A stretch of 64,000 nt of DNA from Patescibacteria group bacterium (lineage in GTDB: Bacteria; Patescibacteriota; Minisyncoccia; Moranbacterales; DUUL01), in the NCBI GenBank assembly GCA_034658815.1, contig JAYEFY010000030.1:3337-67336 (forward strand), in the 5' to 3' direction. The translations under genes were made by a program, and so were the position numbers. Below are positions 17,363 to 63,958 of the stretch, one piece after another (position 1 is the first letter of the stretch; the number at the start of each line of letters is the position of its first letter). A model generated the notes under the pieces. It saw only the letters and a program-made list of their open reading frames with translations. It was not told the origin of the DNA and did no database searches.

Positions 17363-19072
17363 ATGAAAAATAACTGGAATATTAACGAGCAGCCGATACT
17401 TAATAGCAGGATCTTTCCCGAGCTTGAACCGGCGACTGAACGTCTTCTGCTGATAAGAGGCATAAAAACGAAAAAACAAAAAAGATCTTTTTTTGTTGCC
17501 GATTACGAAAAAGATTCCCATGATCCCTTTTTAATGTTCGATATGGATAAGGCGGTTAACAGACTTTTACAGGCAATTAAGAATAAAGAAACTGTCTGTG
17601 TTTTTGGTGATTACGATGCTGACGGCGTGACCGCGTCAGTGATGTTGCTCGACTTTTTCCAACAAATAAATATAAACACGATCAGTTATATTCCGGACAG
17701 AAATAAGGAAGGTTATGGATTAAATAATAAAGCTATTGATTATATTAAGAAAAAAGGCGCATCCCTTATTATCACCGTAGACTGCGGCATTTCCAATGAA
17801 AAGGAGGTTGACTACGCATCGAAATTAGAAATTGACTCAATAATTCTTGACCATCACCATGTCCCATCGGCAATTCCCCGTGCCATTGCCGTTGTTGATC
17901 CAAAAAGAAATGGGGATGCGTATCCTGATAAAAACCTTGCCGGTGTTGGCGTCGCGTTCAAATTTATTCAGGCTGTTGCTTCAAAAATTTCAAAATACGA
18001 TAAACAACAATTGAAATGGTTTTTGGATATTGTGGCTATTGGAACTATCGCTGATTGCGTGCCGCTTATAGGTGAAAACAGAATGTTAGCGAAATACGGC
18101 CTATTGGTTTTATCGAAAACAAAACGTGTTGGTCTGCGGCAGTTGTTTCATGTTGGACGTATCGCGATCAGCGAATCGCGTGTTCCGAGCGCTGAAGTTA
18201 TTTCTTTTCAAATTGCACCGCGCATCAACGCGGCCGGAAGGATGGATCATGCGAGCATAGCGCAAGAATTGTTACTTTGCAAGGCTGCGGAAGAATCAAC
18301 GGCTCGACTTTTAGCGCTGGATCTTGAGGACAAAAACAATCATCGCCAGAAGGTTACAAAAGAGGTTGTGCGGCAAGTTCGAAAACAGTATCTTGGCGGC
18401 AAAAAACCGCATAATATTATTATCGCAACGTCGCCGCACTGGGAGCTTGGAATTGTCGGATTAGCTTCTGGAAAAATAACCGAGGAATTTCGAAAACCTT
18501 CAATTTTATTGAAAGAATTTGATGAATATTTCAAAGGTTCGGGAAGATCGGTGCGCGGATTCAATCTTATTGAAGCGCTTGAGCGCCAGAAAGATCTGCT
18601 TGTGAAATATGGCGGACACCCGCGAGCTGCCGGGTTTGAAATAACAAAACAGAATTTTGAACTTTTTACCGAAAATATTCAGTGCGATGCTGATTCATTG
18701 CCGAAAGATCTATTTGTCAAACAGATAACCATTGACTTGGATTTGTCGATAAATGAACTGAATTTGAAATTTCTTGACGAACTTGATCAGTTTGGGCCGT
18801 TTGGTGAAAAAAATCGCTGTCCGCTATTTCTTACCAGCAATCTTCGAATTATACGAAAAAGAACGGTTGGAAATGGTGAAGCGCATCTTAAGTTGATATG
18901 CGCTGACAACGATGACTCCAATACCATTGTTGAAGCAATTGGCTTTGGAATCGCGAAAGATTACCAGTCTTTATCGGAAGGCGACAAAATTAATCTTGTT
19001 TACCGTTTAGAGCGGAATATTTGGAATGGAAAAGAGTCAATTCAGGCAAGGATAGAAGATATAGAATTATAA
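17363..19072 (+). CDS. recJ: single-stranded-DNA-specific exonuclease RecJ
   Basis: DHH motifs VFGDYDADGVTAS and ILDHHH. DHHA1 region GGHPRAAG. The start abuts the stop of the response regulator. Confidence 0.85.
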   Translation: MKNNWNINEQPILNSRIFPELEPATERLLLIRGIKTKKQKRSFFVADYEKDSHDPFLMFDMDKAVNRLLQAIKNKETVCVFGDYDADGVTASVMLLDFFQQININTISYIPDRNKEGYGLNNKAIDYIKKKGASLIITVDCGISNEKEVDYASKLEIDSIILDHHHVPSAIPRAIAVVDPKRNGDAYPDKNLAGVGVAFKFIQAVASKISKYDKQQLKWFLDIVAIGTIADCVPLIGENRMLAKYGLLVLSKTKRVGLRQLFHVGRIAISESRVPSAEVISFQIAPRINAAGRMDHASIAQELLLCKAAEESTARLLALDLEDKNNHRQKVTKEVVRQVRKQYLGGKKPHNIIIATSPHWELGIVGLASGKITEEFRKPSILLKEFDEYFKGSGRSVRGFNLIEALERQKDLLVKYGGHPRAAGFEITKQNFELFTENIQCDADSLPKDLFVKQITIDLDLSINELNLKFLDELDQFGPFGEKNRCPLFLTSNLRIIRKRTVGNGEAHLKLICADNDDSNTIVEAIGFGIAKDYQSLSEGDKINLVYRLERNIWNGKESIQARIEDIEL

Positions 19073-19375
19073 AGCTCCGCGTGTTTACGCGCGCAGTTCA
19101 TTATTTCTTAGGCGTAGCAAGATCTGTTGAAGCAGAAGAGCGGCAATATTGTAAATAACGCTCTAATCTCTAACATATAAACTGAAAATTTGTGCCGCGA
19201 ACTTCCTGAATTGATAAGCCATGCAAGCCATACGATTATTGACCGAACTTCAATTTTTCGCTATAGTAAAAGGGAGTTTCGTTATAGCGACTATTCCCAA
19301 ACCGGCTTCATTAGCAAAGATTTTTGGCAGGAGCCGGCTTGGGATCAATTTTTTATAATGACATTTTATGCTCTA

Positions 19376-19447
19376 AGGCCCTATCGTCTAGTGGCTAGGA
19401 CGCAAGGTTCTCATCCTTGTAACAGGGGTTCGATTCCCCTTAGGGCT
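19376..19447 (+). tRNA. tRNA-Glu (anticodon CUC)
   Basis: Manual cloverleaf. Acceptor GGCCCTA/TAGGGCT. D-arm GTCT..GGAC. Anticodon stem CAAGG/CCTTG with loop TTCTCAT. T-arm AGGGG-TTCGATT-CCCCT. Discriminator A. Confidence 0.8.
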
Positions 19448-19503
19448 ACGTTAACTGTCAGCAGATAATTTGACGGCAAGAATTAATAAATAAAAAAGAA
19501 AAA

Positions 19504-31478: not shown

Positions 31479-31952
31479 ATGTTTTTGTTGGTAAATCAAG
31501 AAGTGTGCTATAATTCAATATTAATACACTTGAAACGCATGGAAAAAAGTTTACTTAAGCAATCTTTTCAAAAAGCCATTCAGTCTTTTAAAGTTTCTTT
31601 GCCGATGATGTTCGGAATTTTATTGCTGATCAGTCTTTTAAATACCGGCTGGCAAGGGTATTACGAGCGTATTTTTACCGGCAATGTGTTTTTAGATCCG
31701 TTGATTGGCGCTTTAGCTGGCAGTATTTCTTTTGGCATTCCGATAGTAAGCTATATTGCTGGCGGGGAACTGCTGGAACAAGGAGTCAGCTTGCTGGCGG
31801 TAACGGCCTTTATGCTGGCTTGGGCCACCGTCGGTATAGCTATGCTGCCGTTAGAAGCCAAATTTTTGGGCTGGCGGTTTGCTTTGGTAAGAAACGCTGT
31901 CAACTTTATTTTTGCCATTGTGATTGCTATCTTAACTGTTTATACAATTTAG
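31479..31952 (+). CDS. predicted permease, N-terminal half (DUF318/two-component permease-like)
   Basis: A polytopic membrane protein. It is followed, after the repeat element, by a second similar-size membrane ORF. Confidence 0.45.
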   Translation: MFLLVNQEVCYNSILIHLKRMEKSLLKQSFQKAIQSFKVSLPMMFGILLLISLLNTGWQGYYERIFTGNVFLDPLIGALAGSISFGIPIVSYIAGGELLEQGVSLLAVTAFMLAWATVGIAMLPLEAKFLGWRFALVRNAVNFIFAIVIAILTVYTI

Positions 31953-31962
31953 GATAATGAAT

Positions 31963-32155
31963 GTTAGAAATTAGAGCGTTATTTACAATATTGCCACTCT
32001 TTTGTCATCCCGAACGAAATGAGTGAAGTATGAACGAATGAAGTCGAGGGATCACTTCGCGTAAATAAGTTCACGACCAAGGGATTCTTCATCCCGAGTA
32101 CTCGGGACTCAGAATGACAAGGATGAAAGTGTAAACAACGCTAGAGTTTCTTACA
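31963..32155 (+). repeat. palindromic MITE-like repeat element, copy A (expanded, about 193 bp)
   Basis: Imperfect terminal inverted repeats gttagaaattagagcgttatttaca / tgtaaacaacgctagagtttcttac. Internal palindrome cccgagtactcggg. It has an about 88-bp extra segment relative to copy B. Confidence 0.6.
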
Positions 32156-32166
32156 AATTTAGGGCA

Positions 32167-32706
32167 ATGAACAACCAAGTAAAAAAACAGAAGATAGGTG
32201 GTGGTACAAAGTTTTTAATGGCAGTTTTGATTTTATACGCGGTTATGGCCTTGTCTAATTTTCAATTTGCGTCTGAAGCTTTTTTAAGTTTTTTGCGTAT
32301 GTTAGTCCGTATCACCCCGATATTAATTGTAGTATTTTTTATTATAGCAGGAGTCAACTTTTACTTCACTCCCCAAAAAGTTAAGAAATATCTGGGACAT
32401 GGTTCCGGCTTCAAAGGATGGCTGTACGCTGTTATTTCCGGAATTTTAGTTTCCGGTCCGCCGTATATATTATTTCCGCTTTTAGGAGAACTAAAAGAAC
32501 GCGGAATGAAAAATTCTCTGCTGGCTGTGTTTCTATACAATAGAAATGTAAAAATACCATTTTTGCCGGTAATGGTATTTTATTTTGGCTTAAGTTTCAC
32601 TGTTGCCGTTTCCGTATTTATAATTTTCTTTTCTATTTTGAACGGCTTGTTGTTAGGATGGTGGGTAGCGGACAATCAAAAAATTTATAACAAAGAAGCC
32701 AAGTAG
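32167..32706 (+). CDS. predicted permease, C-terminal half
   Basis: A polytopic membrane protein that starts 12 nt after the repeat end. Confidence 0.45.
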   Translation: MNNQVKKQKIGGGTKFLMAVLILYAVMALSNFQFASEAFLSFLRMLVRITPILIVVFFIIAGVNFYFTPQKVKKYLGHGSGFKGWLYAVISGILVSGPPYILFPLLGELKERGMKNSLLAVFLYNRNVKIPFLPVMVFYFGLSFTVAVSVFIIFFSILNGLLLGWWVADNQKIYNKEAK

Positions 32707-32716
32707 CCGTTTCTGC

Positions 32717-33850
32717 TTAGCTCCTATTTTTTTTTATACTCAAACCCCAGCTTTCTCTGGCAAGCTCGCGGGTTTTTTCTATCTCTTTTTTTTCGGGTAA
32801 GGGAAGTGTTTCCATCACTTTCTTGAGTTGAGTTTGATTAAGTTTCACGACCGTGTCCCACAAGTCTTTTTTCTCAAGAATTTCTTTGAGCTTGTCCTCG
32901 TTGTAAGCAAAGGTTTGGCGGTGTGTTTTCGCGACAATTTTGTTCTCTCCGAACAGCCGTTCGACATTTTCTTGCTCCATGATCTCAAGAATTTTTTGCT
33001 GAAGTTCGGCGGCTTTCCTTCGTTCGCTTTTCGCGTTTTCTTGCGCTTTTAAATACTCTTCAATAATTTTCTTTTGCTGTCTGTCATCAAACGTTTCTTC
33101 TTTGAATTTGTGTTTCCACATAGGGCAAATTTTTTGGTGTTCACACCAACCGCACAAAGGACTCATGATGGCAGGGAAGTCCGAATTCTTGATTTGATGA
33201 ATAATTTCCATGACTTCCTTTCGTCCTTTTTGAAGTTCTTCTGTTGTTTTGGTTGAGCTTAATTTTGCTGAATGTCGCAGGAAATACAATGATAAGCTAA
33301 TATTGCCAAGACCGCTTTCTTCTTTTGGATAGCGCTTCAAAAAAGCCAGAAGATAGATCAATAATTGCAAGTTGTCATCAATTGACTTTTGCGGAGGCAT
33401 TTTTTTTGAAGTCTTATAATCAATGATCTCATATCCTTTATCTGTTTTATCGATTCGATCAATAATACCGGAAATAAAATGTTTTTCTTTTGATTCGCTA
33501 TCTTCAAGTTCAATGACGAACCGTGACTCAAGATCAACAATTTTTGCCATGGCCGGGTCATTTTTTTGGTAGTATAGCTGGATAATGTTAATTCCTTGCG
33601 CGAAGGCTGACCGTTCATTTATCTCATCATCGAAAACATCAGGATTCCAATGGGTCGAAAAGTGATTTAGAGCCTCTTTGAGCGATGGATTGGTAAATCC
33701 TCCGCTATGGATAAACTTCATCGTATCATGGATAAGTGTTCCAAATACGGCTTCGGGAGATTTTTTGGTTTTGATCCTGTCGACTACCTGGAATTTATAT
33801 TTTAGCGGGCATGTTTTAAATGTATTGAGCGCGGAGAAAGAAGTATTCAT
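32717..33850 (-). CDS. PD-(D/E)xK nuclease, Cas4/RecB-like with 4-Cys Fe-S motif (standalone)
   Basis: N-terminus TCPLKYKF. Nuclease motifs GIIDRID..EIIDYKTSK. C-terminus CGWCEHQKIC. No neighbouring cas genes. Confidence 0.7.
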   Translation of the reverse strand: MNTSFSALNTFKTCPLKYKFQVVDRIKTKKSPEAVFGTLIHDTMKFIHSGGFTNPSLKEALNHFSTHWNPDVFDDEINERSAFAQGINIIQLYYQKNDPAMAKIVDLESRFVIELEDSESKEKHFISGIIDRIDKTDKGYEIIDYKTSKKMPPQKSIDDNLQLLIYLLAFLKRYPKEESGLGNISLSLYFLRHSAKLSSTKTTEELQKGRKEVMEIIHQIKNSDFPAIMSPLCGWCEHQKICPMWKHKFKEETFDDRQQKKIIEEYLKAQENAKSERRKAAELQQKILEIMEQENVERLFGENKIVAKTHRQTFAYNEDKLKEILEKKDLWDTVVKLNQTQLKKVMETLPLPEKKEIEKTRELARESWGLSIKKNRS

Positions 33851-33912
33851 GGAGTAGTTTAAAATTTACAATTTTTTTAAGCTCGAAAGGGAAGCAGTGC
33901 GACAATATGGTG

Positions 33913-34509
33913 TTATTGCTTTTTTATGTTAATGACAACGCCATATAGTTTTATATCATCATAACACAGCCATCCCATATCACGCGAGTCAAAAGAGTTG
34001 TTTTGATTGTCTCCCAAAACCCAATAGCAGCCGTTTTTATCGATTTCATACAATCTCTTAGTATAGGGACTGTTACCAAGCTAACTCCTACCAAAAATTG
34101 TTAATTTTACCCACAGCTTTGAAAAAAATTATTGCCTATGCTAATGCATAACCAAAAATTTTATTTCTTCTCTGTGAATAAAATTTCCTAGTCCCGAGTA
34201 CTCGGGACTAACGCCTGCCTGCCGGTAGGCAGGGAGCTAGCTCGGAAACAATCCCTGGAGAATTTCATCAGAAGAGACGTTCGGGCAGGTTAGGCAGGAA
34301 AAAACGATAATATCACCCGGTTTCGGCTCTTGTTTCGGATCCACGGTTAATTCGTCACCGTCAGACAAGGTTGGCTCCATTGAGTTGCCGGTTCCCAGAA
34401 AAACATCATATCGATCTGAAGGCAAAAAATAAAAGCCGACTACCAGAAAAGTTACGGCAATAATGAATACAACCAAATAAAATCCTTTTGAAAGTTCTCC
34501 TTCTCTCAT
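33913..34509 (-). pseudogene. lepB: signal peptidase I (LepB/S26) pseudogene with decayed, stop-containing middle section
   Basis: N-fragment 34237..34509 has TM plus GNSMEPTL (Ser box) and GDIIVF. C-fragment 33913..34080 has YWVLGDNQNNSFDSRDMGW (box D/E). Both are in the same frame. They are separated by 156 nt carrying 4 in-frame stops and two perfect palindromes. Confidence 0.55.
34189..34233. repeat. repeat-family core palindrome (tagtcccgagta|ctcgggacta) plus second hairpin (cctgcct-gccggt-aggcagg), copy D
   Basis: A 22-bp perfect palindrome sharing the cccgagtactcggg core with copies A and B. It sits inside the lepB pseudogene. Confidence 0.45.
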
Positions 34510-34793
34510 ATATTTGTAAAGACAGGGAGGGCAGGCGGGGTATAGTTATGATTAGCCATAAAATAACATAAAGAGGCGCTAGAGAGGATAAACACACAAC
34601 GTCGCACAATGTATATTATGCGACTCAACATTCTTTTCTACTGCATCATTCATCATTCCCGGTATTCTATTTGCATTTGCCCTGCGCGCTTTCTTTCTTT
34701 ATTACTATGTTCAGAAAATAAGCAATTAGCATTCAGTAGCGGCTAACTGTGGCAATTGATTGATGTCCAGTGCTACCTACCTACCAGTGGGTT

Positions 34794-35051
34794 TTACTCA
34801 ACCTGGTAATTTTCAACTTGATCTTGCTGAATTTTATTTAGATTAGCTTCAAACTGTTTCATTTGGTTGTTTACTTGATCCTCAATCTGTTTTACTTGAT
34901 CCTCAGCTTGTTTTTTTGTTTCAACCGCAGTCCGGTAGCGGTTTGAATAATAAGTACCCGCTAAAACCATAATTATTGCCAAAACAAGCAATAAAATAAT
35001 CAGAGCAAACCCATTTTGATTTTTGTCTTTTGTAAATTTAGAAGTTCTCAT
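34794..35051 (-). CDS. small membrane-anchored coiled-coil protein
   Basis: One TM helix followed by a Q/E/K-rich helical tail. Confidence 0.3.
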   Translation of the reverse strand: MRTSKFTKDKNQNGFALIILLLVLAIIMVLAGTYYSNRYRTAVETKKQAEDQVKQIEDQVNNQMKQFEANLNKIQQDQVENYQVE

Positions 35052-35221
35052 GTTATGCGAGCTATGCCAGTAAATTTTTTATTAAAAAACTGTTTCTAAA
35101 TAGGATTGTTTCTAAAATATTCCGGAATATTTTCAAGATCCTTTTTATTCATAAAATATGCTGCTGCTGCTTTTGTTCCTTTCCGCTTCTTCCCTGCTGG
35201 ATAGATTCGGGGAAGCGTTTG

Positions 35222-36511
35222 CTATCGCTTTTTATATATCAGCATTTGGTCAACTGTTACCGAACTGTTATAAATTGCGCCGACAAGTTTTTTTGTTGTT
35301 TCTAAATACAGGTTTGGACCAAAAAGCGGATCGTGTACAACGTAACGGCCTTTCTTGTCTCTTCCGTGAATCACTACGTAATGTCCTTTTCCTCCATGCG
35401 CGCGAACAAAAATAATCACCGGATGTTCCTTTTTTGCCTCCTTCTTAATTTTTTTCCAGTCAATATTTCCATGAGCTGTTGATGAATTCAGCTTAAGTGA
35501 TTTCCAGTGTTTAGGCCAGACAATGAGGTCTCTGTAGAATATTGGCTGACTGGAAAGTTTCCCCGGGCTTATTTTGTTGTTGTAATGCGTGAAGATCATG
35601 GATAGTGATGTTACCGCGCAGCCATAATCTTTCATCAGTGAAGATGAAAGGCCAATTCTTTTGTATGCCCACCTATCATCATCTTGGGCATAATACCATT
35701 TTTTTGATGCCAGACCGCTGCTTGGCTTTGGCGCATTTGCAAGAATTTCATTAAGCGCTTGTCTTGTTTCACCTGAAAGCGAATCAAGATCAATAAGTTC
35801 TTGTTTTTGTTTTTCAACTCTGACGAGCAATTCATGATATCTATCTTCTTGTCCTCGTGTTTTTTCAAGAAGGATATTTTTTGACAATTTCTCATTTCCG
35901 GCATATAAAATTTTTTCGCTTAAGTCCTCTTTTCTGGCAATCAACTCTTCTTTCTTTTGTTTATATTTGTTTTGCTGCTGCTTAAGTTCATTTTTTTTCA
36001 CTTTCAAAACATTTAAAAACTCATCAACTTTTTGTGAAGTCTGATTGATATATTCCGATTGGTTTAATATTATCGAAAGATCTTTATCTCCTGATACGAA
36101 TTCCAGACCCAGCTCTTGATCGATCTGATAATAAAGGCGGATCATTTCAGAGAGGTTATTTTTTGTTCTGTTGAGCTCTTTTTCTTTCCGGTCAAGATCT
36201 CGTTGAATTTCTTTTATTTCAAGATCATTTTTTTCAATCTCATGTTTTGTCATTTCAATATCATTTTGAAAGCTTTCAATTTGAATGTCCATCAATCCAA
36301 GTTGGTTTTGCAATGACATTTGCTGTTGTTGTTTGAGATTGATCATTTGCTTGTAATTTTGTGCTTTTTGTTCAAGTGATTCAAGTTTCCCGTTATTGTC
36401 ATCGGCGTGGGCGAAGGGATGCAACACCAAAAGAACCGTGAATACAAAGACGGCCAGTATACTATTTTTTAGAAAAGTTCTTGATCTTGTTTTGTTTTTG
36501 GTATTAAACAT
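35222..36511 (-). CDS. secreted coiled-coil protein with C-terminal papain-like cysteine peptidase (C39-like) domain
   Basis: Signal/TM segment, a long heptad-rich region, then GCAVTSLSMIF (Cys) and GKGHYVVIHG (His). Confidence 0.55.
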   Translation of the reverse strand: MFNTKNKTRSRTFLKNSILAVFVFTVLLVLHPFAHADDNNGKLESLEQKAQNYKQMINLKQQQQMSLQNQLGLMDIQIESFQNDIEMTKHEIEKNDLEIKEIQRDLDRKEKELNRTKNNLSEMIRLYYQIDQELGLEFVSGDKDLSIILNQSEYINQTSQKVDEFLNVLKVKKNELKQQQNKYKQKKEELIARKEDLSEKILYAGNEKLSKNILLEKTRGQEDRYHELLVRVEKQKQELIDLDSLSGETRQALNEILANAPKPSSGLASKKWYYAQDDDRWAYKRIGLSSSLMKDYGCAVTSLSMIFTHYNNKISPGKLSSQPIFYRDLIVWPKHWKSLKLNSSTAHGNIDWKKIKKEAKKEHPVIIFVRAHGGKGHYVVIHGRDKKGRYVVHDPLFGPNLYLETTKKLVGAIYNSSVTVDQMLIYKKR

Positions 36512-36607
36512 ATTTTAAAATCGCTTTCTTCATTGGTTATAAGATATCAAAGTTTTATCTAAAAATCAATTTATTCGCCGCCATACTTGCCTGGACGGGG
36601 AGAGATT

Positions 36608-38137
36608 TCACTCTGCTGAAGAAATAGGAGGTGCCGCGCGCGTGAACGTGCCGAGCTTCATTTTTTCGATTGCCGAGGCGATTCTTTTTAGAGCTTCTTC
36701 TTTTCCAATTACCCATGCCACCTCAAACGGACTGGAACTTTTTTCAACGCCTGTTAACGCGACTCGCAACGGCCATAATAGATCCCCGCGTTTATCACCA
36801 GCGGTTTTCATGAGAGTTTCTTGAATAATATCAAGATCAAATTTTTCTTTTTTGATTTCTTCAATGGTTTTTCGCGCCATTTGCAGAGAATTCTCTGTCT
36901 GTTTACTGCTGTTGCTTTTCCACTTTAAAAGCTCCGGATCATATTCTTTCAACGCAAAATAAAAACCAATATTTTCTGTTACGTCTTTGATTTTTTTCAT
37001 TCTTTCTCTCTCTACTTTCGTGATTTTCTCCAGTAGCGGTGTTTCGTGCGAGTAAGCATTTTTTTGGCAATAGGCTTCCAGTCGCGGCCGTACAAGTTCA
37101 AAAAGCTCCTTATCGTTTTTCTGTCTAATATAATAGCTGTTCATCCAATCAAGTTTTTTGTAATCGAACACAGCACCGGCCTTATGAAGACCTTCAACAT
37201 TAAAGATCTTTGATAATTCACTAAGAGTGAAATACTCTTGTTCGTTTTTAGGATTCCATCCAAGAAGCGCGATGAAATTAACGATCGTTTCGGAGAGGTA
37301 TCCTTCTTTTTTAAAATCTTCAACGCTAATGTCTCCCCGGCGTTTTGATAATTTTTTTCTGTTTTCTCCTAAAATATTTGGCACATGGATAAAGATTGGA
37401 TGCTTCCAGTTAAAATACTTGTAAAGAAGAATATGTTTGGGCGTACTCGGAAGCCAATCTTCTCCGCGTACAACATGTGTGATGTTCATAAGATGATCAT
37501 CAATTACAACTGCTAGGTGGTAAGTCGGGAACCCGTCCGATTTGATCAATACTTGATCATCAATTGTGCTGCCTTTTACAGAAATTTTTCCATAAACTTC
37601 ATCGTTGAATTCAATAATTTTATTATCCGGCACATTTAGGCGAAGCACATATTTTTCACCCGCTTCAATTCGTTTTTTTACTTCTTCTTTGGAAAGTTCA
37701 AGGCAATGCTTGTCGTATTTTGGCGGTTTCTTTTCCTGTTGCTGTTTTTTTCTTAGATCGTCTAAACGCTCTTTTGAACAAAAGCAAGGATATGCGGTTC
37801 CCTGCTTCCTCAGCTTATCGGAGTACTTTTTGTAGATATCAAGCCGTTTTGATTGAAAATATGGCCCATAATCGCCTTTTTCGATGATCTTATTTTGGTT
37901 GTCCAGTATCACGCCTTCATCGTTTCTAATTCCGGCCCATCGCAATGCATTTAATATTTTTTCAAGCGCGTCCTCCGCAAAGCGCGCTCTGTCCGTGTCC
38001 TCTATTCTGATAATGAATGTGCCTTTATTCTTTTTTGCGACAAGATAAGCGTACAAGGCGGTTCTTAGATTTCCAATATGCATTGGGCCTGTCGGAGACG
38101 GCGCAAATCTTGTTCGGATATTTTGATTGGAATTCAT
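36608..38137 (-). CDS. gltX: glutamyl-tRNA synthetase
   Basis: RFAPSPTGPMHIGNLRTALY (HIGH) and KLSKR (KMSKS). Confidence 0.9.
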   Translation of the reverse strand: MNSNQNIRTRFAPSPTGPMHIGNLRTALYAYLVAKKNKGTFIIRIEDTDRARFAEDALEKILNALRWAGIRNDEGVILDNQNKIIEKGDYGPYFQSKRLDIYKKYSDKLRKQGTAYPCFCSKERLDDLRKKQQQEKKPPKYDKHCLELSKEEVKKRIEAGEKYVLRLNVPDNKIIEFNDEVYGKISVKGSTIDDQVLIKSDGFPTYHLAVVIDDHLMNITHVVRGEDWLPSTPKHILLYKYFNWKHPIFIHVPNILGENRKKLSKRRGDISVEDFKKEGYLSETIVNFIALLGWNPKNEQEYFTLSELSKIFNVEGLHKAGAVFDYKKLDWMNSYYIRQKNDKELFELVRPRLEAYCQKNAYSHETPLLEKITKVERERMKKIKDVTENIGFYFALKEYDPELLKWKSNSSKQTENSLQMARKTIEEIKKEKFDLDIIQETLMKTAGDKRGDLLWPLRVALTGVEKSSSPFEVAWVIGKEEALKRIASAIEKMKLGTFTRAAPPISSAE

Positions 38138-38147
38138 AAACTCATTT

Positions 38148-38256
38148 GTTAGAAATTAGAGCGTTATTTACAATATTGCTGCTCTCTTGCCATCCCGAGT
38201 ACTCGGGACTCAAAATGACAAGGATGAAAGTGTAAACAACGCTGGGGTTTCTTACA
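38148..38256 (+). repeat. palindromic MITE-like repeat element, copy B (compact, about 109 bp)
   Basis: Same TIRs and core palindrome as copy A. It fills the whole gap between the NUDIX stop and the gltX start. Confidence 0.6.
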
Positions 38257-38266
38257 GTTTATTCAT

Positions 38267-38788
38267 TTAAACAATTAATTTTTTCTCAGTAAGTATTTTA
38301 AGAAAGCGCATGGATACGCGTCTTTTCTCATGCTGGCGAATTTTCTGCAATAATATCCTTGCCTGATCAAATGAAGCAAGGATATAGCCATCAAATTCAG
38401 TTTCTTCTATCGTTACATCTTTTGTGTTTATTTGTATAGCAAAAGCGTAATAATATTTTCCTTTCATCATCACTTCCCTTCCGCTGTCATTTTTTAGCGT
38501 GCGGTTCCCCCAATATTTTTTCGGGAAATGAATTTTGTCTTCCGCGAAAAATTCTTCATTCTTTACTTGACTATAAAGCGTATTTCCAAGTTCTTCAGTC
38601 ATTTCTCTCAAAAGAGCGTTTTTTATTTCTTCCAAATTTCTAACACCGCCCTGCGGAAATTGCCATAAATCATATTTCTTGTCATAAAATAAAAAAATTT
38701 TCTTATTGTGCAAAAAACACCCAACCACCTCCGGGCGAAAGCCCAAATTTCTTTTCTCATTTATCTCTAAAACCGTGACAGTTCTCAT
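38267..38788 (-). CDS. NUDIX hydrolase
   Basis: Nudix box GGVRNLEEIKNALLREMTEELG. The start is probably the internal M (38788) rather than 38839. Confidence 0.65.
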   Translation of the reverse strand: MRTVTVLEINEKRNLGFRPEVVGCFLHNKKIFLFYDKKYDLWQFPQGGVRNLEEIKNALLREMTEELGNTLYSQVKNEEFFAEDKIHFPKKYWGNRTLKNDSGREVMMKGKYYYAFAIQINTKDVTIEETEFDGYILASFDQARILLQKIRQHEKRRVSMRFLKILTEKKLIV

Positions 38789-39498
38789 TTTTTTGAATAT
38801 ATTATTCCGTAAATAGGAAAAACAACTAATGCATTCCAAATTCTTTTTATTCTATTTGGTTGAGTAATGACACGCCACAGCCATTCAAAGCCGTATTTTC
38901 TAAATATCCTCGGCGCTCGTTTTTGCCTGTTTGTCCAGAAATCCAATGTTCCGCCCACGCCAATCGCACAGCGAAGATTTGGCAAGTTCAACAAGCGCCG
39001 ATCTATGAACTTTTCCTGATAAGGCGCTCCCAATCCAACGATCAATAATTCTGTATCGCCGGCAATGCTTGAGCGAGAACCGTTTCTTTTTTCTTCAATT
39101 ACGGAATAATTCGTAAGGAAAAATTTATTCTCCAGCATTCTTTCAACTTCTCTTTTTGAGCTTAATCCATCAGAATGGATCACCACTGTTGTTTTTACAT
39201 GACGCTTCACCGCTACTGAAAGAATTTTTTCAGTCAATTCAACGCCTGCGATCCTTTCTCCTATCTTTAAGCCTTTGACCGCGGCAACCAATTTGATTCC
39301 AAATCCGTCCACGATATTGACGCTCTTTTTTAAAATATTCTTATATTCATTATCTTGGCGCGCCTTTAACGCTATTTCCGGATTTAATGTCACTAAAAAA
39401 AGCGGTTTTGACCCTGAGCTTATCAGGCAATTCTCAATAAGATGAAATATACCTATCTTAGTGTGTCTTGGAATGTCAATTGAAAATATTGATGCCAT
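38785..39498 (-). CDS. WecB/TagA/CpsF-family glycosyltransferase
   Basis: Blocks NPEIAL, DGFGIKL, RIAGVEL, GLGAPYQEKFI, AIGVGGTLDF and FEWLWRVITQPNR. Confidence 0.6.
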   Translation of the reverse strand: MASIFSIDIPRHTKIGIFHLIENCLISSGSKPLFLVTLNPEIALKARQDNEYKNILKKSVNIVDGFGIKLVAAVKGLKIGERIAGVELTEKILSVAVKRHVKTTVVIHSDGLSSKREVERMLENKFFLTNYSVIEEKRNGSRSSIAGDTELLIVGLGAPYQEKFIDRRLLNLPNLRCAIGVGGTLDFWTNRQKRAPRIFRKYGFEWLWRVITQPNRIKRIWNALVVFPIYGIIYSKK

Positions 39499-39500
39499 AA

Positions 39501-40049
39501 TTATACAAGTTCAATACTATCAAGGGTTTGATATGTTTTTTTCCCATTTTCAAAAATGCTTTCCATTACGTCAATGCTGTAGACGGGTATGACTGCGCGA
39601 ATATCAATTGATGAAAGATCTATGATCGTTTCAGTGCTTTGAACACGTTTTTTTTGTAAGCGAGCGAGAGTAACATGCGGGCGGAATTGCTTGGCATCTG
39701 TTTCCATACTTGAAATCGTTTCCTCAACAAGTTTCCTTATTTCGGATAAACAATTATTTCGCGGACCCTGCAGCCAGATCATTTTTTTTCTAACACTATC
39801 CGGTCCCCACGCGAAACTGTCAAATGTTATGTCAAAAATATTCTCTCCGGCCAATGATTTGCTTAACAACGCGCAAATATTTATAAGTGTGTTATCATTT
39901 TGATAGCCGAGAAAAGACAAGGTGAGATGATAATTTTCGCTCGGTACCCATTTTGCGTTAATTGTCTTAATAAGCGGATTTAATTTTCGATGAATGTATT
40001 TTTTTGTTGAACCGTCAAAATTTATCGCTACAAAAATCTTTCTTTGCAT
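39501..40049 (-). CDS. 2'-5' RNA ligase / 2H phosphoesterase (LigT/ThpR family)
   Basis: Two HxT motifs: HLTLSFLG and HVTLARL. Confidence 0.7.
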   Translation of the reverse strand: MQRKIFVAINFDGSTKKYIHRKLNPLIKTINAKWVPSENYHLTLSFLGYQNDNTLINICALLSKSLAGENIFDITFDSFAWGPDSVRKKMIWLQGPRNNCLSEIRKLVEETISSMETDAKQFRPHVTLARLQKKRVQSTETIIDLSSIDIRAVIPVYSIDVMESIFENGKKTYQTLDSIELV

Positions 40050-40141
40050 ATTGTTTTCCGAACATTTTTTAATGGGATTGTTTTCAAATTAGTTTCCCTG
40101 CCTCATCGCCTGTCTGCCGCCTGTGAAAGGCGGGGCGTTAG

Positions 40142-41200
40142 TCAACTCTTGGTAGGAATTGGTTTGACAACAGTCTCTTTATTGATTGCATCTCCAATAA
40201 GCAGACTGGCTGCGGTGGCAAAAGGCACGGCAATGATCACGCCTGAAGCTCCGGCAAGTGTTCCGCCGATAAGCAAGGAAAGAATTATTACAACAGGATT
40301 CAAGCCAACTGCTGTTCTCATTATCAATGGAACGAGAACGTAATTTTCAAACAGCTGGATTACAATGTAGGCTAAAAAAACAAACAAAGCGGTAAGCGGT
40401 GAAATGGTTAATGCCGCAAGAACTGCCGGAATAATCGCTATAGTGGGTCCGATAAATGGAATGATCTCAAGGAGACCTCCGATCAATGCGATGATAAGGG
40501 CGAATGGAACACCGAGGACACTCAGCGCGAGAAAATCAAGGGAGAAAACAATGGCGATCAAGGTTATTTGCCCGATCAACCAACGCCCGATCTTTGCTTG
40601 AATTCTTAAAACAAGTTCAATGGTATGATCCAGATGCTTTTTGGGAACTATTTGCTGTAAAAATCCGCGTGTCCCGTTTTTTTTCACAAGCATATAAAAT
40701 GAGAGAGATACGATGATAACGAGTTTGAATATGCCCGTTATAAATTGCAGAGAGTTGGAAAAAATTCCGGATAATGAATTAGCAATGCCATTTACCGTGT
40801 TATTGACCAAATATTGAAAGTTTTCTTCAAAATGGTAATCGACCGCTATTTGTGATATGCCCTTAAAAAAGGTGTTAATGTTGTTAAAATAAAGAGGGAA
40901 ACTTTCCGCGAATTCTTTTAGTTCGTTTATGATGATTGGAATGATAAGATAAAATACTAATCCGAGAACAAAGAAGAAAAACGTAAACAACCCGAGAGCG
41001 CTTGCAACGCGCGGTATTTTTTTCTTTTCTGATCTGTCAACAAACGGCTGCGCAGCGCTCACAACAATTATTGAAAGCAGTAGCAATAAGATAATATCGC
41101 GAATCAGGAATAATATCCACAAAAACAACAAAATAAAAACTGTTTGCCAGATTATCTTTGTTGATATCTCAATTTTTTTCATGTTTTTCATTTTAGACAA
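40142..41200 (-). CDS. AI-2E family transporter (PerM/YhhT-like)
   Basis: About 8 TM helices. C-terminal region GLNPVVIILSLLIGGTLAGASGVIIAVP. Confidence 0.55.
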   Translation of the reverse strand: MSKMKNMKKIEISTKIIWQTVFILLFLWILFLIRDIILLLLLSIIVVSAAQPFVDRSEKKKIPRVASALGLFTFFFFVLGLVFYLIIPIIINELKEFAESFPLYFNNINTFFKGISQIAVDYHFEENFQYLVNNTVNGIANSLSGIFSNSLQFITGIFKLVIIVSLSFYMLVKKNGTRGFLQQIVPKKHLDHTIELVLRIQAKIGRWLIGQITLIAIVFSLDFLALSVLGVPFALIIALIGGLLEIIPFIGPTIAIIPAVLAALTISPLTALFVFLAYIVIQLFENYVLVPLIMRTAVGLNPVVIILSLLIGGTLAGASGVIIAVPFATAASLLIGDAINKETVVKPIPTKS

Positions 41201-42462
41201 AGCATGTTTTCGATAGCCTGCTTATCTTTGTGCGGACCGACAACAGCTACATTCAAGCCACCGTTTCTGATTATTTTTTTCGCGACGTGCTGGATATCTT
41301 CCGCTGAAATGCCGTCGATTTTTTCGAAAAGTTGCTGCGGTGTTCTGATCTCTTTTCTGAAAAGTTCTTGATCGCCAAAAAATGTCGCGACAGCGCTAGT
41401 TGACTCAAGGGACATCAGCATTCTTCCCTTTAGATATTCTTTTGCTTTTCTTAATTCTTTTTTAGACACTTTTTTATCACGTATTTTCTCAAGTTCATTT
41501 AAAATTAATTTTATTGCCTTTTGCAGATTTTTGTGTTCAACTCCGGCGGCAAAAAAGAGATATCCGGTATCAGTGGCCATATCCATCGCGGCGTTAATAT
41601 AATATGTCAGCCCGTAGCGTTCTCTGATGTTGATAAATGCTCTACTGCTCATACCACCGCCCAGAATTGTTCCCAAAAGGACTGCTTTGTACCTGTCAGG
41701 GCTGAACATATGCGGTCCGCGCAATCCAACGATAAGATGCGTCTGATCTGTGTCTTTCCCATATAATTTAACAGCTGGTTTTGTTTGTTTTTCAATAGTT
41801 TTCCTTTTGGAGATCTTTTTTCGACTCTTTTTTTTGCTGTTGAAATATTGTTTGACGCGAGCTAGCGCTTTTTCCTCATCAAAATTTCCCGCGATTGTTA
41901 TAACTGTCGCGCGCGGAATGTACATCCTTTTCATATAATCAACGAATTTTTTTCTGTTGAATGTTTCAATGTTTTTTTCAGATCCGATGATATTCCATCC
42001 TGCCGGTTGGTCGCTGTAAAGCAATTCTTCAAAAACATCCCATACATACCGCATCGGTGTATCACGATACATTGCCGCTTCCTGCAATATCACTCCTCTT
42101 TCTCTGTCAATTTCATCTTGTGAAAGCAGAGAGTTCAGATATATGTCGCTGATAACATCCAGAGCCTTGCCAAAATGTTTTGTGGGAACTTTTATCCAAT
42201 ATCCGGTTTGTTCTTTTCCCGTGAAAGCGTTATATTCACCGCCGACATTATCCAGGAGTTCGGTAATGATCTTTGTTGTAGGACGGTTTTTTGTTCCCTT
42301 GAACATCATATGTTCCAGAAAATGCGAGATGCCGTTATTGAGCTTGTTCTCATATTTAGATCCCGCCTCAACAAGTATTTGTGTTGTTACCGTTTGGGTG
42401 TCTCTCATTGGAACAAATATGACTCTTAAGCCATTCTCCAATACATGTTTTTTGTATTCCAT
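41188..42462 (-). CDS. M16-family zinc peptidase (insulinase-like)
   Basis: Inverted zincin HFLEHMMFKGT (HxxEH). Confidence 0.75.
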   Translation of the reverse strand: MEYKKHVLENGLRVIFVPMRDTQTVTTQILVEAGSKYENKLNNGISHFLEHMMFKGTKNRPTTKIITELLDNVGGEYNAFTGKEQTGYWIKVPTKHFGKALDVISDIYLNSLLSQDEIDRERGVILQEAAMYRDTPMRYVWDVFEELLYSDQPAGWNIIGSEKNIETFNRKKFVDYMKRMYIPRATVITIAGNFDEEKALARVKQYFNSKKKSRKKISKRKTIEKQTKPAVKLYGKDTDQTHLIVGLRGPHMFSPDRYKAVLLGTILGGGMSSRAFINIRERYGLTYYINAAMDMATDTGYLFFAAGVEHKNLQKAIKLILNELEKIRDKKVSKKELRKAKEYLKGRMLMSLESTSAVATFFGDQELFRKEIRTPQQLFEKIDGISAEDIQHVAKKIIRNGGLNVAVVGPHKDKQAIENMLCLK

Positions 42463-42539
42463 CTGAAAATATTATTAAATTAACCCAGTTGTGGCTGTTT
42501 TCGTTCTCATGGTAGCAAGTAACATAACAAAACTCAAGT

Positions 42540-43397
42540 CTAAGCCATTCTAAGCCATTCCTTGATTGCCTCCTTGTAATTTCTAAGTTTTGGGAATTTC
42601 GTATTCAAGAGTACTGATGAACGCGGTCTTTTTGCGGGTCGAGGAAACTCTTCGGAACTCACGGGAATAACGCTCGTTTTAATCTTGGCAATTTCAAATA
42701 ATGTTTTGACTCCTTCGTACCATGTTACGGCGCCTTCATTTATCAAGTGATAGATTCCGTAACGGTACTCTTCTTCAACCAATCTTTTTGTTGCCTTGGC
42801 AAGATCCGGGACATAAGTAAAACACGATCTTTCACTGTCAATTACTTTCAATGAATCTTTTTCTTTCGCGAGCATGAGTATAGTCTCAAAAAAACTTTTT
42901 TTAGCTTCTTTTGATTTTCCGGGTTTTCCAAAAAGTTTTGAGGTGCGGATCAAATAATATTTATCTCCAACACGTTTTACATTCTTTTCACCCAGATCCT
43001 TTGATCTTCCGTATCGTGAAATAGGGTTTGTTCGGTCTGTTTCGGCATATTCTCCTTTTTCTCCGTCAAAAACATAGTCGGATACGTATTGGACAAAAAC
43101 TGCGTTGTGTTTTTTCGCCGCGCCGGCAAGGAATTTTGGCGCTTCACCATTTGTCATCTTTGCTTTTTCATATTCTTTGTCATCTTCTTCCGCTTTATCA
43201 ACCGCATTATAGGCTGCGGCGTTAATAACTATATCCGGCATTTCTTTGAGAAAGAGCATGTCTACTTGATCTTTACTGGTAATATCAATATTTTCAATGT
43301 CATACGCGGCAACTTCATAATTTTTATCAGCTGAAAACAGATCAACCAGTTCGCTTCCCAGCGTTCCTTTTGCTCCGATGATAAGCACTTTTTTCAT
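42540..43397 (-). CDS. rfbD: dTDP-4-dehydrorhamnose reductase
   Basis: MKKVLIIGAKGTLGSEL Rossmann N-terminus and RmlD-like blocks. Confidence 0.8.
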   Translation of the reverse strand: MKKVLIIGAKGTLGSELVDLFSADKNYEVAAYDIENIDITSKDQVDMLFLKEMPDIVINAAAYNAVDKAEEDDKEYEKAKMTNGEAPKFLAGAAKKHNAVFVQYVSDYVFDGEKGEYAETDRTNPISRYGRSKDLGEKNVKRVGDKYYLIRTSKLFGKPGKSKEAKKSFFETILMLAKEKDSLKVIDSERSCFTYVPDLAKATKRLVEEEYRYGIYHLINEGAVTWYEGVKTLFEIAKIKTSVIPVSSEEFPRPAKRPRSSVLLNTKFPKLRNYKEAIKEWLRMA

Positions 43398-43417
43398 TTT
43401 TTAATATCTTTTAAAAT

Positions 43418-43446
43418 GTTAGAAACCCCAGCGTTGTTTACACTTT
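43418..43446 (-). repeat. solo terminal repeat of the MITE-like family, copy C
   Basis: The reverse complement aaagtgtaaacaacgctggggtttctaac equals the right TIR of copy B. It lies 21 nt upstream of the rfbD start. Confidence 0.45.
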
Positions 43447-43517
43447 AATACTCAATACTCAATGATTGAACATTAAAACATTGATTATTGGATATTAAGC
43501 CATGCTCATCTATTCTA

Positions 43518-44543
43518 TCACGCAACAGAATTTTGCTTCGGTGAACCGTATTGCTTTTTATAATATTCTTGGTACTTGCCGGATTTGACGCTTTTCCACC
43601 ATCTTTTGTTATTTTTGTACCATTCCACGGTTTCTCGCAGCCCGTCTTCGAAAGAAATTCTTGGCTCCCATCCCAACTCTTTCTTTATTTTTGAAAAGTC
43701 AATGGCGTATCGCCTGTCATGCCCCGGCCGGTCTTTAACATATTCAATTTCTCCATCTTCCCTGCCCATTATTTTCAAGATCGCGCGCGTAATTTCCATA
43801 TTGGTTTTTTCGCTGTCTCCGCCAACACAATAAGTCTCTCCAATTTTTCCGTTATGGATTATTTCATCAATAGCCCGGCAATGATCTTCTACATGCAGCC
43901 AGTCGCGAATGTTCTTCCCGTCGCCATAAACGGGAATTTTCCCCCCTTCAATTAAATTAGTCGCGAAAAGAGGGATCAGTTTTTCCGGAAATTGGTACCG
44001 ACCATAATTATTGGAACAGTTGGAAATGGTAATGGGCAAATCATAGGTATGAAAATACGCCCGCACCAAATGATCAGAGGCCGCTTTTGAAGCGCTGTAG
44101 GGGCTTCGCGGGTCATACGGCGCGCTCTCATTGAATGCCGAGTCATTCTTTTCGAGTGATCCGTACACTTCATCAGTGGAAACATGATGGAAACGTTTAT
44201 TTCCACTGTTTTTAGCGGTTTCCAGTAATGTGTGTGTGCCGTTGACATTTGTTCTTATGAAAGTGTCACTGTTAAGGATCGATCTGTCCACGTGGGATTC
44301 TGCCGCGAAATGAACGATTGTGTCCGCATCTTTTACAAGCTTGTTAACCAATTTCTTGTCAGTAATATCACCTTTTACAAATTCATAATTAGGATTATTC
44401 TCGATTCCTTTCAGATTTTCCAGATTTCCGGCGTAAGTAAGAGCGTCCAGATTGACAATTTTGTGATCTGGATATTTCTTAAGAATATAATGAATAAAAT
44501 TACTGCCTATGAATCCGCAACCTCCTGTAACCAACAGTTTCAT
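43518..44543 (-). CDS. rfbB: dTDP-glucose 4,6-dehydratase
   Basis: MKLLVTGGCGFIGSNF with catalytic YxxxK context. Confidence 0.9.
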   Translation of the reverse strand: MKLLVTGGCGFIGSNFIHYILKKYPDHKIVNLDALTYAGNLENLKGIENNPNYEFVKGDITDKKLVNKLVKDADTIVHFAAESHVDRSILNSDTFIRTNVNGTHTLLETAKNSGNKRFHHVSTDEVYGSLEKNDSAFNESAPYDPRSPYSASKAASDHLVRAYFHTYDLPITISNCSNNYGRYQFPEKLIPLFATNLIEGGKIPVYGDGKNIRDWLHVEDHCRAIDEIIHNGKIGETYCVGGDSEKTNMEITRAILKIMGREDGEIEYVKDRPGHDRRYAIDFSKIKKELGWEPRISFEDGLRETVEWYKNNKRWWKSVKSGKYQEYYKKQYGSPKQNSVA

Positions 44544-44573
44544 AAATAATGATAGTTTAAAATTTAATTAGAG

Positions 44574-44648
44574 TTAAAGCCGACCTGTCCGCCGAAGCTT
44601 TAGCGAAAGCGGATGAATCCCGGCGCCGCCGGTAACCAATAATTTCAT
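44574..44648 (-). pseudogene. 5' remnant of a second NAD-dependent epimerase/dehydratase (rfbB-like) gene
   Basis: The minus strand reads ATGAAATTATTGGTTACCGGCGGCGCCGGG = MKLLVTGGAG, then runs into a stop after 24 codons. It parallels the rfbB start 100 nt away. Confidence 0.4.
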
Positions 44649-45014
44649 AAAGTTTTTTAAGTTATTATATGTTACAATCTAAATTCTATTATATTCCCTG
44701 TTTTTTATCAACATTCTTGTGAAAAGTTTTGGTATTGTCATTCCGATCCCGCTCTAGCGGGAGAGGAATCGCTTCGCGGAAAATAGAAAGCATTTCAATG
44801 CAAAGGAATCCTTCGTCTGCCTAAGGCGAATCAGAATAATAGGGAAAGTGCCTAGTATCAAGCATATTAATTCCCAATTTAATTTATTGATAATTGAGAA
44901 ATTGATAATTGAATGAAAATTGTAAATTGTAAATTTATTCAAAGTTTCCGTCTTTGTCCTGTATAAGTAGTATTGGGTTTTGAATGCAGTAAGGTGGATA
45001 GAATATTGACCAAC

Positions 45015-63333: not shown

Positions 63334-63558
63334 TTTCTAAATAAAGGATACGAGTTGCCCTTCAGTACGGCGGACAGGCAAACTCGGATCAGCGCGTGAA
63401 ATTTTTGAGGAGATAAAAGAAGCCACCAACCGGATTTCCGACTGGTGGCTAATTTAACACATTGAATGTTGTTCAATAATCAAAAAACGATAATTCTACC
63501 GCAGGCGGCCATAAGCGCCATTTTTTGATGACAGTCAGGCTTTTTACAGACTTTTCTG

Positions 63559-63835
63559 CTTTACCGGCGGCAACGCCGATGGCAGAAAATATATTCCCTC
63601 CCGCTTTACCGGTGGCAACGCCGATGATAGAAGCGATAATATCCTTTTCCGCTTTACCGGTGGCAACGCCGATGAAAGAAAATATATCCCCTCCCGCTTC
63701 ACCAGTGGCAACGCCGACGGCAGAAGCGATATTCTTTCCCGCTTTACCGATAGCAACGCCGATGAAAGAAAATATATTCCCTCCCGCTTTACCGGTGGCA
63801 ACGCCAATGACAGAAAATATATCTTCCCCTGCCCG
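63559..63835. repeat. tandem repeat, 6 units of 45-49 bp (ctttaccggtggcaacgccgatg + a similar variable half)
   Basis: Units read directly. The period is 15 codons. ORFs are open on both strands (+: ALPVATPMxENIxPP; -: LPPVKREGIYFLSSA). Confidence 0.7.
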
Positions 63836-63958
63836 AGTGCTAACTATCGATCCTATGGAATAGATGTTCTTTGCTTCGTTACAAAAGCTAATGAAGCAAA
63901 AAATATTGCCATTTGGAGCATTCCTCCCGATAAGAGATACTTTGCTGTCACCTATATT

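Follow-up and report, generated by a model that had tools for sequence, protein, structure and literature searches.

Introduction

Correia elements (CREE/NEMIS) of Neisseria are repeats of ~100-160 bp with terminal inverted repeats (TIRs) of ~26 bp, which occupy intergenic sites, are co-transcribed with adjacent genes as hairpins and generate a TA duplication. To our knowledge, they have no transposase of their own and no identified partner insertion sequence (IS), and are confined to Neisseria. In Rickettsia, which has a reduced genome, the palindromic repeats called RPE are ~100-150 bp long and are typically located in frame inside protein genes; we know of no clear IS-type ends and of no partner IS for them. 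RUP of Streptococcus pneumoniae is a non-autonomous transposable element (MITE) derived from an IS, its parent family being IS630.

The parent of a further element of this kind, MITECca01 of Cardinium, is ISCca4, a member of the IS982 family (PMC9769881). Within the IS481 family, ISLxc2 of Leifsonia xyli is 1105 bp long, encodes a protein of 332 aa, has TGTG ends and generates a 6-bp NCTAGN duplication (PMC2516522).

The window examined here, a 64-kb stretch of DNA from a Patescibacteria group bacterium, contains in total two full and two partial copies of a short palindromic repeat. The nearest named relatives of the proteins encoded in the window are those of Moranbacteria, according to protein searches. 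The two full copies (A and B), a solo end and a truncated copy are, with a probability that we put at roughly 0.87, MITEs of an IS481-like IS that were mobilised in trans. Both full copies are non-coding and fall below a size of about 600 bp, are bounded by inverted repeats, have ends that match those of an IS, and show insertion polymorphism. The window elements are therefore of a known kind, the IS-derived MITE, and involve no new mechanism.

The initial annotation compared the behaviour of these repeats to that of Correia or RPE elements. The likeness is one of analogy only, since the ends, the duplication and the location are all different, and the repeats have an IS481-like IS as their partner. 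The window MITE is similar to Correia elements in its size, the length of its TIRs, its intergenic site and the absence of its own transposase. However, its end sequence is unrelated, its family duplicates 7 bp (16 bp in copy A), and its partner IS is distributed across many phyla. Membership of the Correia family was rejected on the basis of the ends, which read TGTWAGAAA...AGCGTTRTTTACA, and of the duplications, which comprise 7 or 16 bp and not TA. RPE and the window MITE are both palindromic repeats of similar size in a reduced genome, but copies A and B are intergenic and have IS-type ends; only a separate 195-bp insertion in a lepB-like gene is located inside a gene, and it has in-frame stops. 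Membership of the RPE was likewise rejected, as none of the four copies, full or partial, lies within a gene.

RUP and MITECca01 are, like the window MITE, short non-coding elements that have only their TIRs in common with an autonomous IS, and mobilisation in trans is presumed for all of them. They differ in their parent IS (IS630 and IS982, respectively), and the window MITE is set apart by a modular hairpin interior and a host that belongs to the Patescibacteria. In the part of the literature that was covered, no description of Patescibacteria MITEs or of this IS481-like family was found, and the matches to literal sequence motifs were to primers only.

Copies of the Element in the Window

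Two full palindromic copies had been described near positions 31963 and 38148, and both were recovered at these coordinates. Once the flanking T and A are counted in, copy A spans 194 bp (31962-32155, plus strand) and copy B spans 110 bp (38147-38256, plus strand). Each TIR, for which a length of about 25 bp had been given, is 26 bp long when these two bases are included. The two ends of a copy are complementary at ~20 of the 26 positions and follow the pattern TGTWAGAAA...AGCGTTRTTTACA, with TGTTAGAAATTAGAGCGTTATTTACA at the left of both copies and TGTAAACAACGCT(A/G)G(A/G)GTTTCTTACA at the right. In copy A, the left end, which is IRR-like as discussed below, occupies 31962-31987, and the right end occupies 32130-32155. 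The corresponding positions in copy B are 38147-38172 and 38231-38256. A core palindrome lies at 32091-32108 in copy A and at 38192-38209 in copy B.

Over their common parts, the two copies are 92% (52 nt) and 95% (66 nt) identical. Copy A has a surplus of 84 bases over copy B (32014-32097, plus strand), a hairpin module with a repeated TCATCCCGA at both borders, in agreement with the extra segment and duplicated start that had been recognised there. RNA folding, which had been proposed as a check on whether each copy can form one long hairpin, predicts a structure with the two ends paired in both cases: copy B folds at -30 kcal/mol (z = -2.5) and copy A at -56.9 kcal/mol (z = -3.8). Neither element contains an open reading frame (ORF) of 60 aa or more.

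The two partial copies are found elsewhere in the window. The solo end, TGTTAGAAACCCCAGCGTTGTTTACA, is located on the plus strand at 43417-43442, in the 120-nt spacer between rmlB and rmlD and 19 nt upstream of the rmlD start. It corresponds to the solo TIR that had been placed upstream of rfbD, and the spacer holds no recognisable second end or MITE interior. The truncated copy (19132-19176, minus strand) was overlooked in the initial annotation; it consists of a left-type end (19150-19175) and ~18 nt of MITE interior, and its neighbours are recJ (17363-19072) and the gene for tRNA-Glu (19377-19449).

The repeats are far beyond chance. A pattern search that allowed up to three mismatches found the left end, the right end and the core palindrome three times each in the window, while the same end and core patterns had no match in 100 shuffles. 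No further ends were found in the window by a looser search with up to 7 substitutions.

The Partner Insertion Sequence

The end pattern GTWAGARAYYNNAGCGTTRTTTACA was used to scan one genome per species, and at least 99 stretches matched. About half of the 80 matches listed belong to Patescibacteria (Saccharibacteria, Parcubacteria-type groups, Moranbacteria and Peregrinibacteria). The other matches listed come from Neisseriaceae (Bergeriella, Stenoxybacter and Neisseria), Moraxella, Desulfuromonadales, Zetaproteobacteria and others. Many of those listed are located at contig ends, as would be expected for repeats that break assemblies. In viral contigs there was a single match to the end pattern, and the family is essentially absent from them.

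Beside these ends lies either a gene whose product starts with M-x-I-H-K-x-x-R-L-T-P or a short non-coding interior. Autonomous ISs with matching 26-bp ends are 864-901 bp long and encode a DDE (rve) transposase of 263-268 aa. The IS from Bergeriella (locus L004), for example, has a length of 876 bp, ends that are complementary at 21 of 26 positions and a 268-aa protein. The best NCBIfam match of this transposase is IS481 (E = 3e-54), with a score of 184.5 bits against a cut-off of 224. It passes Pfam rve and rve_3, and is ~29% identical to plasmid transposases annotated as IS481. Homologues that are 51-68% identical to it and bounded by the same ends occur in Moraxella, Desulfuromonadales, Synergistales, Saccharibacteria and others, and a divergent homologue (locus L039) has 30% identity.

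The IS481 family, as represented by IS481 of Bordetella and by ISLxc2, resembles the partner IS in having a single DDE (rve) transposase, TGT ends (in the case of ISLxc2), a short symmetric target and a duplication of fixed length. The partner IS is, however, smaller than ISLxc2 in both DNA and protein, and duplicates 7 bp at NNT(T/A)ANN rather than 6 bp at NCTAGN. Judging from these sequence comparisons, the partner IS would be IS481-like but part of a distinct compact subgroup. The window, by contrast with the IS481 family, holds non-autonomous derivatives only.

The two ends of the IS can be told apart, since TGTAAG is always found at the end where the transposase starts (IRL), and TGTTAG is found at the far end (IRR) only. 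By this rule, the window MITE has a TGTAAG-type end and an IRR-like one. The left end of the MITE matches the IRR of an IS in a Moranbacteria metagenome-assembled genome (MAG; loci L029, L031 and L042) at 25 of 26 positions. A tblastn search of the 64-kb window found no transposase of the IS481-like kind, consistent with the absence of a transposase that had been reported for it, and any mobilisation would thus have to occur in trans.

Two further observations concern the size of these elements. In the ISs at loci L029, L042 and L090, the stop codon TAA of the transposase gene lies inside the right repeat (…TTG TAA ACA…); a coding region that runs into the end of the IS explains an element size below 900 bp. 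The smallest derivative of this IS family among the loci examined is a 70-bp element in Stenoxybacter acetivorans (L051, 1535-1604), which consists of little beyond two facing 26-bp ends.

Target Duplications

Target duplications were surveyed in 41 inverted end pairs, all of them outside the window. An exact flush duplication was present in 17 of these, and comprised 7 bp in sixteen pairs, while one reads as 8. The elements flanked in this way comprise nine full ISs (875-901 bp) and eight short elements (160-428 bp), and a flush 7-bp match has a probability of 6e-5 per element by chance. The consensus of the duplications is NNT(T/A)ANN, with T at position 3 in 16 of the 17 and A at position 5 in 14. 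Given these duplications around short elements, miniature derivatives are common, and their mode of insertion is that of the IS itself.

The duplications of the window copies are atypical or decayed. Copy A is directly adjoined at its two termini by 16-bp repeats, AATTTAGGATAATGAA on the left (31946-31961, plus strand) and AATTTAGGGCAATGAA on the right (32156-32171, plus strand), of which 14 positions are identical. The left repeat holds the stop codon of the ORF at 31479-31952, and the right one holds the ATG of the permease ORF at 32167-32706 together with an AGG stretch that may act as its ribosome-binding site. The length of 16 bp differs from the 7 bp of the wider IS/MITE family. A rare insertion with a long stagger may perhaps have been the sole kind tolerated at this junction.

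At copy B, the part of the spacer that is not MITE measures 19 nt as opposed to 12 nt in the closest relative, a surplus of exactly 7, but the candidate 7-mers AATAAAC and AATGAGT are identical at only 4 of 7 positions. Of the target-site duplications that the initial annotation had advised looking for, copy A has a flush one of atypical length, which the empty sites of relatives bear out, and at copy B only the 7-nt surplus of the spacer fits the family. The divergence of 5-8% between copies A and B, along with the imperfect duplications, suggests that the insertions are old.

Empty Sites in Related Genomes

Syntenic contigs of relatives were recovered via protein matches. They come from GCA_030626045.1 (L100 and L107/L108), with GltX 88% and the permease 87% similar to those of the window; from GCA_034660175.1 (L109/L110), with the permease 86% similar; and from ENA ERZ23500294 (L104/L105) and Logan SRR27456861 (L106), each with a nuclease 74% similar to that of the window. 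Empty sites for copy A, copy B or the solo end are present in these four independent related assemblies.

Copy B is located between a NUDIX gene (38267-38839, minus strand) and gltX (36608-38137, minus strand). The spacer between these genes is 12 nt in L100, 2 nt in L104, 8 nt in L106 and 13 nt in L109, as opposed to 129 nt in the window, 110 of which are the MITE. Copy A is preceded by ORF1 (31479-31952) and followed by a half-size ArsP_1 permease gene (32167-32706); at this junction, L107 and L109 have a 4-nt spacer, and the two genes overlap by 4 nt in L106. Alignment shows that the target sequence of copy A, ...ACAATTTAGGATAATGAAC..., is single in L107 and L109, and when the window is compared with the relatives by BLAST, successive matching segments overlap on the relatives' DNA by 15-16 nt exactly at the copy A site. 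At the solo end, L104 has a 14-nt overlap of rmlB with rmlD, compared with the 120-nt spacer in the window. No copy of the MITE ends was found in the syntenic DNA that was compared from the relatives. Insertion in the lineage of the window would be the simplest reading of these empty sites.

Three insertion sites are thus polymorphic, being occupied in the window and empty in relatives. A lack of polymorphic sites, which the initial annotation had named as evidence for a local duplication, is therefore not what the relatives show. Together with the ends that match an IS and the duplications of the family, they support the initial proposal of a mobile family that is non-coding and bounded by inverted repeats. 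A non-mobile local duplication, in which an intergenic hairpin was spread by recombination within the 64-kb region, might instead be considered, given that only four sites are known, all of them within 25 kb of one window, and that the exact subfamily was not found in metagenome contigs, where the exact junction of end and interior (AGCGTTRTTTACAATATTGC) had three matches, all due to chance and without a full end. It is nevertheless barely credible that the copies arose in this manner: their ends match an autonomous IS family of many phyla, the sequence duplicated flush around copy A is present just once in two relatives, and the copies occupy separate gene junctions, each of them otherwise conserved and without the element in relatives. 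This evidence favours MITEs that transposed into these junctions.

Modular Interior of the Elements

The interior of the MITE has no similarity to that of the IS, and BLAST of the window against the 99 end-pattern loci gave no match. Short elements elsewhere (L071, L073, L081 and L040) contain arrays of hairpin units that start with TGTCATYCYGA, and elements of this type also carry GC-rich perfect palindromes. The extra 84 bp of copy A represent one TGTCATYCYGA-type unit, which resembles those found in L073 and L081. Two adjacent units have TCATCCCGA as their common head, and its repetition suggests that copy A gained a unit, rather than having undergone nested transposition.

The nature of the interior also bears on whether the copies might be independent remnants of full-length ISs, which lost the transposase gene by internal deletion and never moved as short elements. 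They do have ends of the IRL and IRR type, as in a full IS, and the solo end and truncated copy show that decay occurs in the window. However, copies A and B and the truncated copy are alike in the interior that adjoins their ends and unlike the interior of the IS; independent deletions would not yield a common non-IS interior. In addition, other genomes commonly contain short elements whose interior is unlike that of the IS and which are flanked by 7-bp duplications. Separate IS remnants are accordingly a very unlikely source of the copies, and MITEs mobilised as short elements are preferred.

A stretch upstream of fabF, beginning near 44741, had been suggested as a degenerate relative of the repeat. 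A hairpin-module-like stretch is indeed present at 44735-44782 (plus strand), between rmlB and fabF, and contains TTGTCATTCCGA, TCCCGCTCTAGCGGGA and GAGGAATCGCTTCGCG, but it has no terminal repeats. What it has in common with the extra module of copy A is a 12-nt head and a 20-nt block only, and the match has an E-value of 0.002 in a pairwise comparison and, when the whole window is searched, of 0.7. A unit in the L026 MITEs is similar to the stretch as well. The stretch is consequently a weak relative of the hairpin module of copy A and not of the whole element.

Palindromes of this sort are also found outside the window. A perfect palindrome, CCTGCCTGCCGGCAGGCAGG, occupies an intergenic position in a relative (L109, 9160-9183), and the near-identical CCTGCCTGCCGGCGAGGCAGG is found inside the MITEs of an unrelated MAG (L026, 2136-2417 and 6512-6787). 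From these sequences, GC-rich palindromic cassettes seem to be widely common to Patescibacteria repeats.

A Separate Insertion in a lepB-Like Gene

In the window, a lepB-like gene (Peptidase S24/S26) is split by a separate insertion of exactly 195 bp, at 34063-34257 on the minus strand. The gene is intact in L104, L106, L107 and L109, where alignment gives a length of 131-142 aa, and the break point in the protein is between ...EEIL and TKRL.... The insertion has 24-bp inverted ends (34233-34256 and 34065-34088; AGGGAYTGTTWCCRAGCTARCTCC) that are complementary at 20 of 24 positions, are unrelated to those of the MITE and have no further occurrence in the window or among 111 loci. It has a predicted fold of -93.8 kcal/mol (z = -10.6). 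Its length is divisible by 3, yet it contains in-frame stop codons. No recognisable target duplication was found at the insertion, and it has no match in Rfam.

The initial annotation assigned the core palindrome in the lepB pseudogene to the same repeat family. The palindrome is real and does lie in the split lepB-like gene, but it is part of this different 195-bp insertion and not a stray member of the family. It is an 18-nt perfect palindrome, GTCCCGAGTACTCGGGAC, at 34191-34208, and the MITE copies carry it with a single base changed (ATCCCGAGTACTCGGGAC). A second hairpin in the insertion, CCTGCCTACCGGCAGGCAGG, is present in the L026 MITEs as well, and at positions 9160-9183 of L109. Different types of element appear to have hairpin cassettes in common.

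The 195-bp insertion is read here as a second, different non-autonomous element that inactivates the gene. Although it is tempting to go further, and to regard the palindromes and TGTCATYCYGA hairpins as a pool of cassettes that moves among Patescibacteria elements or independently of them, with the 195-bp insertion as either a second undescribed small mobile element or an intervening sequence that is removed at the RNA level, we consider this doubtful. As far as is known, group I and II introns are longer than 195 bp. The reading of the insertion as a group I or II intron, or as a ribozyme, is considered unlikely on account of this size, the lack of Rfam support and the TIR-like ends. A TA-duplicating (IS630-like) element was also considered and dropped, since the left junction does not fit it.

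Gene Context and Possible Function

At copy A, copy B and the solo end, the genes on either side have the same orientation. As the spacers in which the elements landed are very short, transcription probably runs through them, so that operon mRNAs would contain the elements as hairpins. A regulatory effect of these hairpins in operon transcripts is possible but unsupported. On the gene strands around copies A and B, promoter-like sites are no more frequent than expected from shuffled sequence, and neither copy contains a terminator-like site. The search against Rfam gave nothing relevant at the gathering threshold, nor at E <= 1 over 31500-45000.

These results bear on a further reading, in which the repeats are primarily functional cis-regulatory or RNA elements (a stabiliser, processing site, terminator or promoter donor) that are maintained under selection, and in which transposon ancestry is incidental. 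The co-oriented genes abut or overlap in relatives, so transcription through the elements is expected; the predicted hairpins are long, and the 16-bp duplication at copy A leaves the stop codon of ORF1 and the start codon of the permease gene intact. Against these points stand the absence of an Rfam family even at the permissive threshold, the lack of an internal terminator-like site and the shuffle-expected level of promoter-like sites on the gene strands, while the z-scores of the folds are modest and the relatives function without the elements. Selection for such a function is thus a highly improbable main reason for their presence, and the copies are better regarded as MITEs that may be co-transcribed with their neighbours.

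The region around copy A has other features. Right beside this copy, at ~32000-32700, the cumulative GC skew has a peak and the AT skew changes sign. In the same stretch, gene orientation flips from plus to minus, and convergent genes end at 32706 and 32717. It is speculative, but this switch in skew and orientation could mark a replication terminus. The convergent arrangement is also seen in relatives that are free of the MITE, and the MITE is therefore not its cause.

Upstream of copy A, the segment 31195-31961 is 90% identical at the DNA level to positions 9235-10005 of L109 (GCA_034660175.1), whereas the flanking genes are only 65-75% identical. The segment contains a small ORF of 42 aa, a terminator-like hairpin and ORF1. 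This mosaic conservation possibly results from a recent exchange between lineages. At a distance from the elements, positions 63551-63866 hold at least six tandem copies of a 45-bp (15-codon) unit, …GCTTTACCGGTGGCAACGCCGATG…, which presumably encode a repeat protein.

Proposed Mechanism and Significance

In the proposed mechanism, the 26-bp ends would be the binding and cleavage sites of an IS481-like DDE transposase. The enzyme would be made elsewhere, either in the same genome or in an ancestor, and would recognise the TGT...ACA ends. Insertion would involve a staggered cut, normally of 7 bp at NNT(T/A)ANN. The interior of the MITE, unrelated to the IS, consists of stackable hairpin modules, namely TGTCATYCYGA-headed units and GC-rich perfect palindromes, and in this lineage the elements have landed in very short gaps between genes of the same orientation. 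We infer the mobilisation in trans, the chemistry of transposition and any effect on expression from the DNA sequence.

The window elements are mobile DNA of an ordinary kind, and it is their host, an ultra-small (CPR) bacterium with a very small genome, that is unusual. The compact IS481-like IS and its miniatures, with 26-bp ends that are almost unchanged, are common to CPR bacteria and to Neisseriaceae, Moraxella and Desulfuromonadales. In the host, the miniatures land in spacers of a few nucleotides between genes that are adjacent or overlap. As many matches lie at contig ends, the IS/MITE family is likely to break metagenome assemblies. It would also serve as a class in genome annotation and as a marker for variation between strains.
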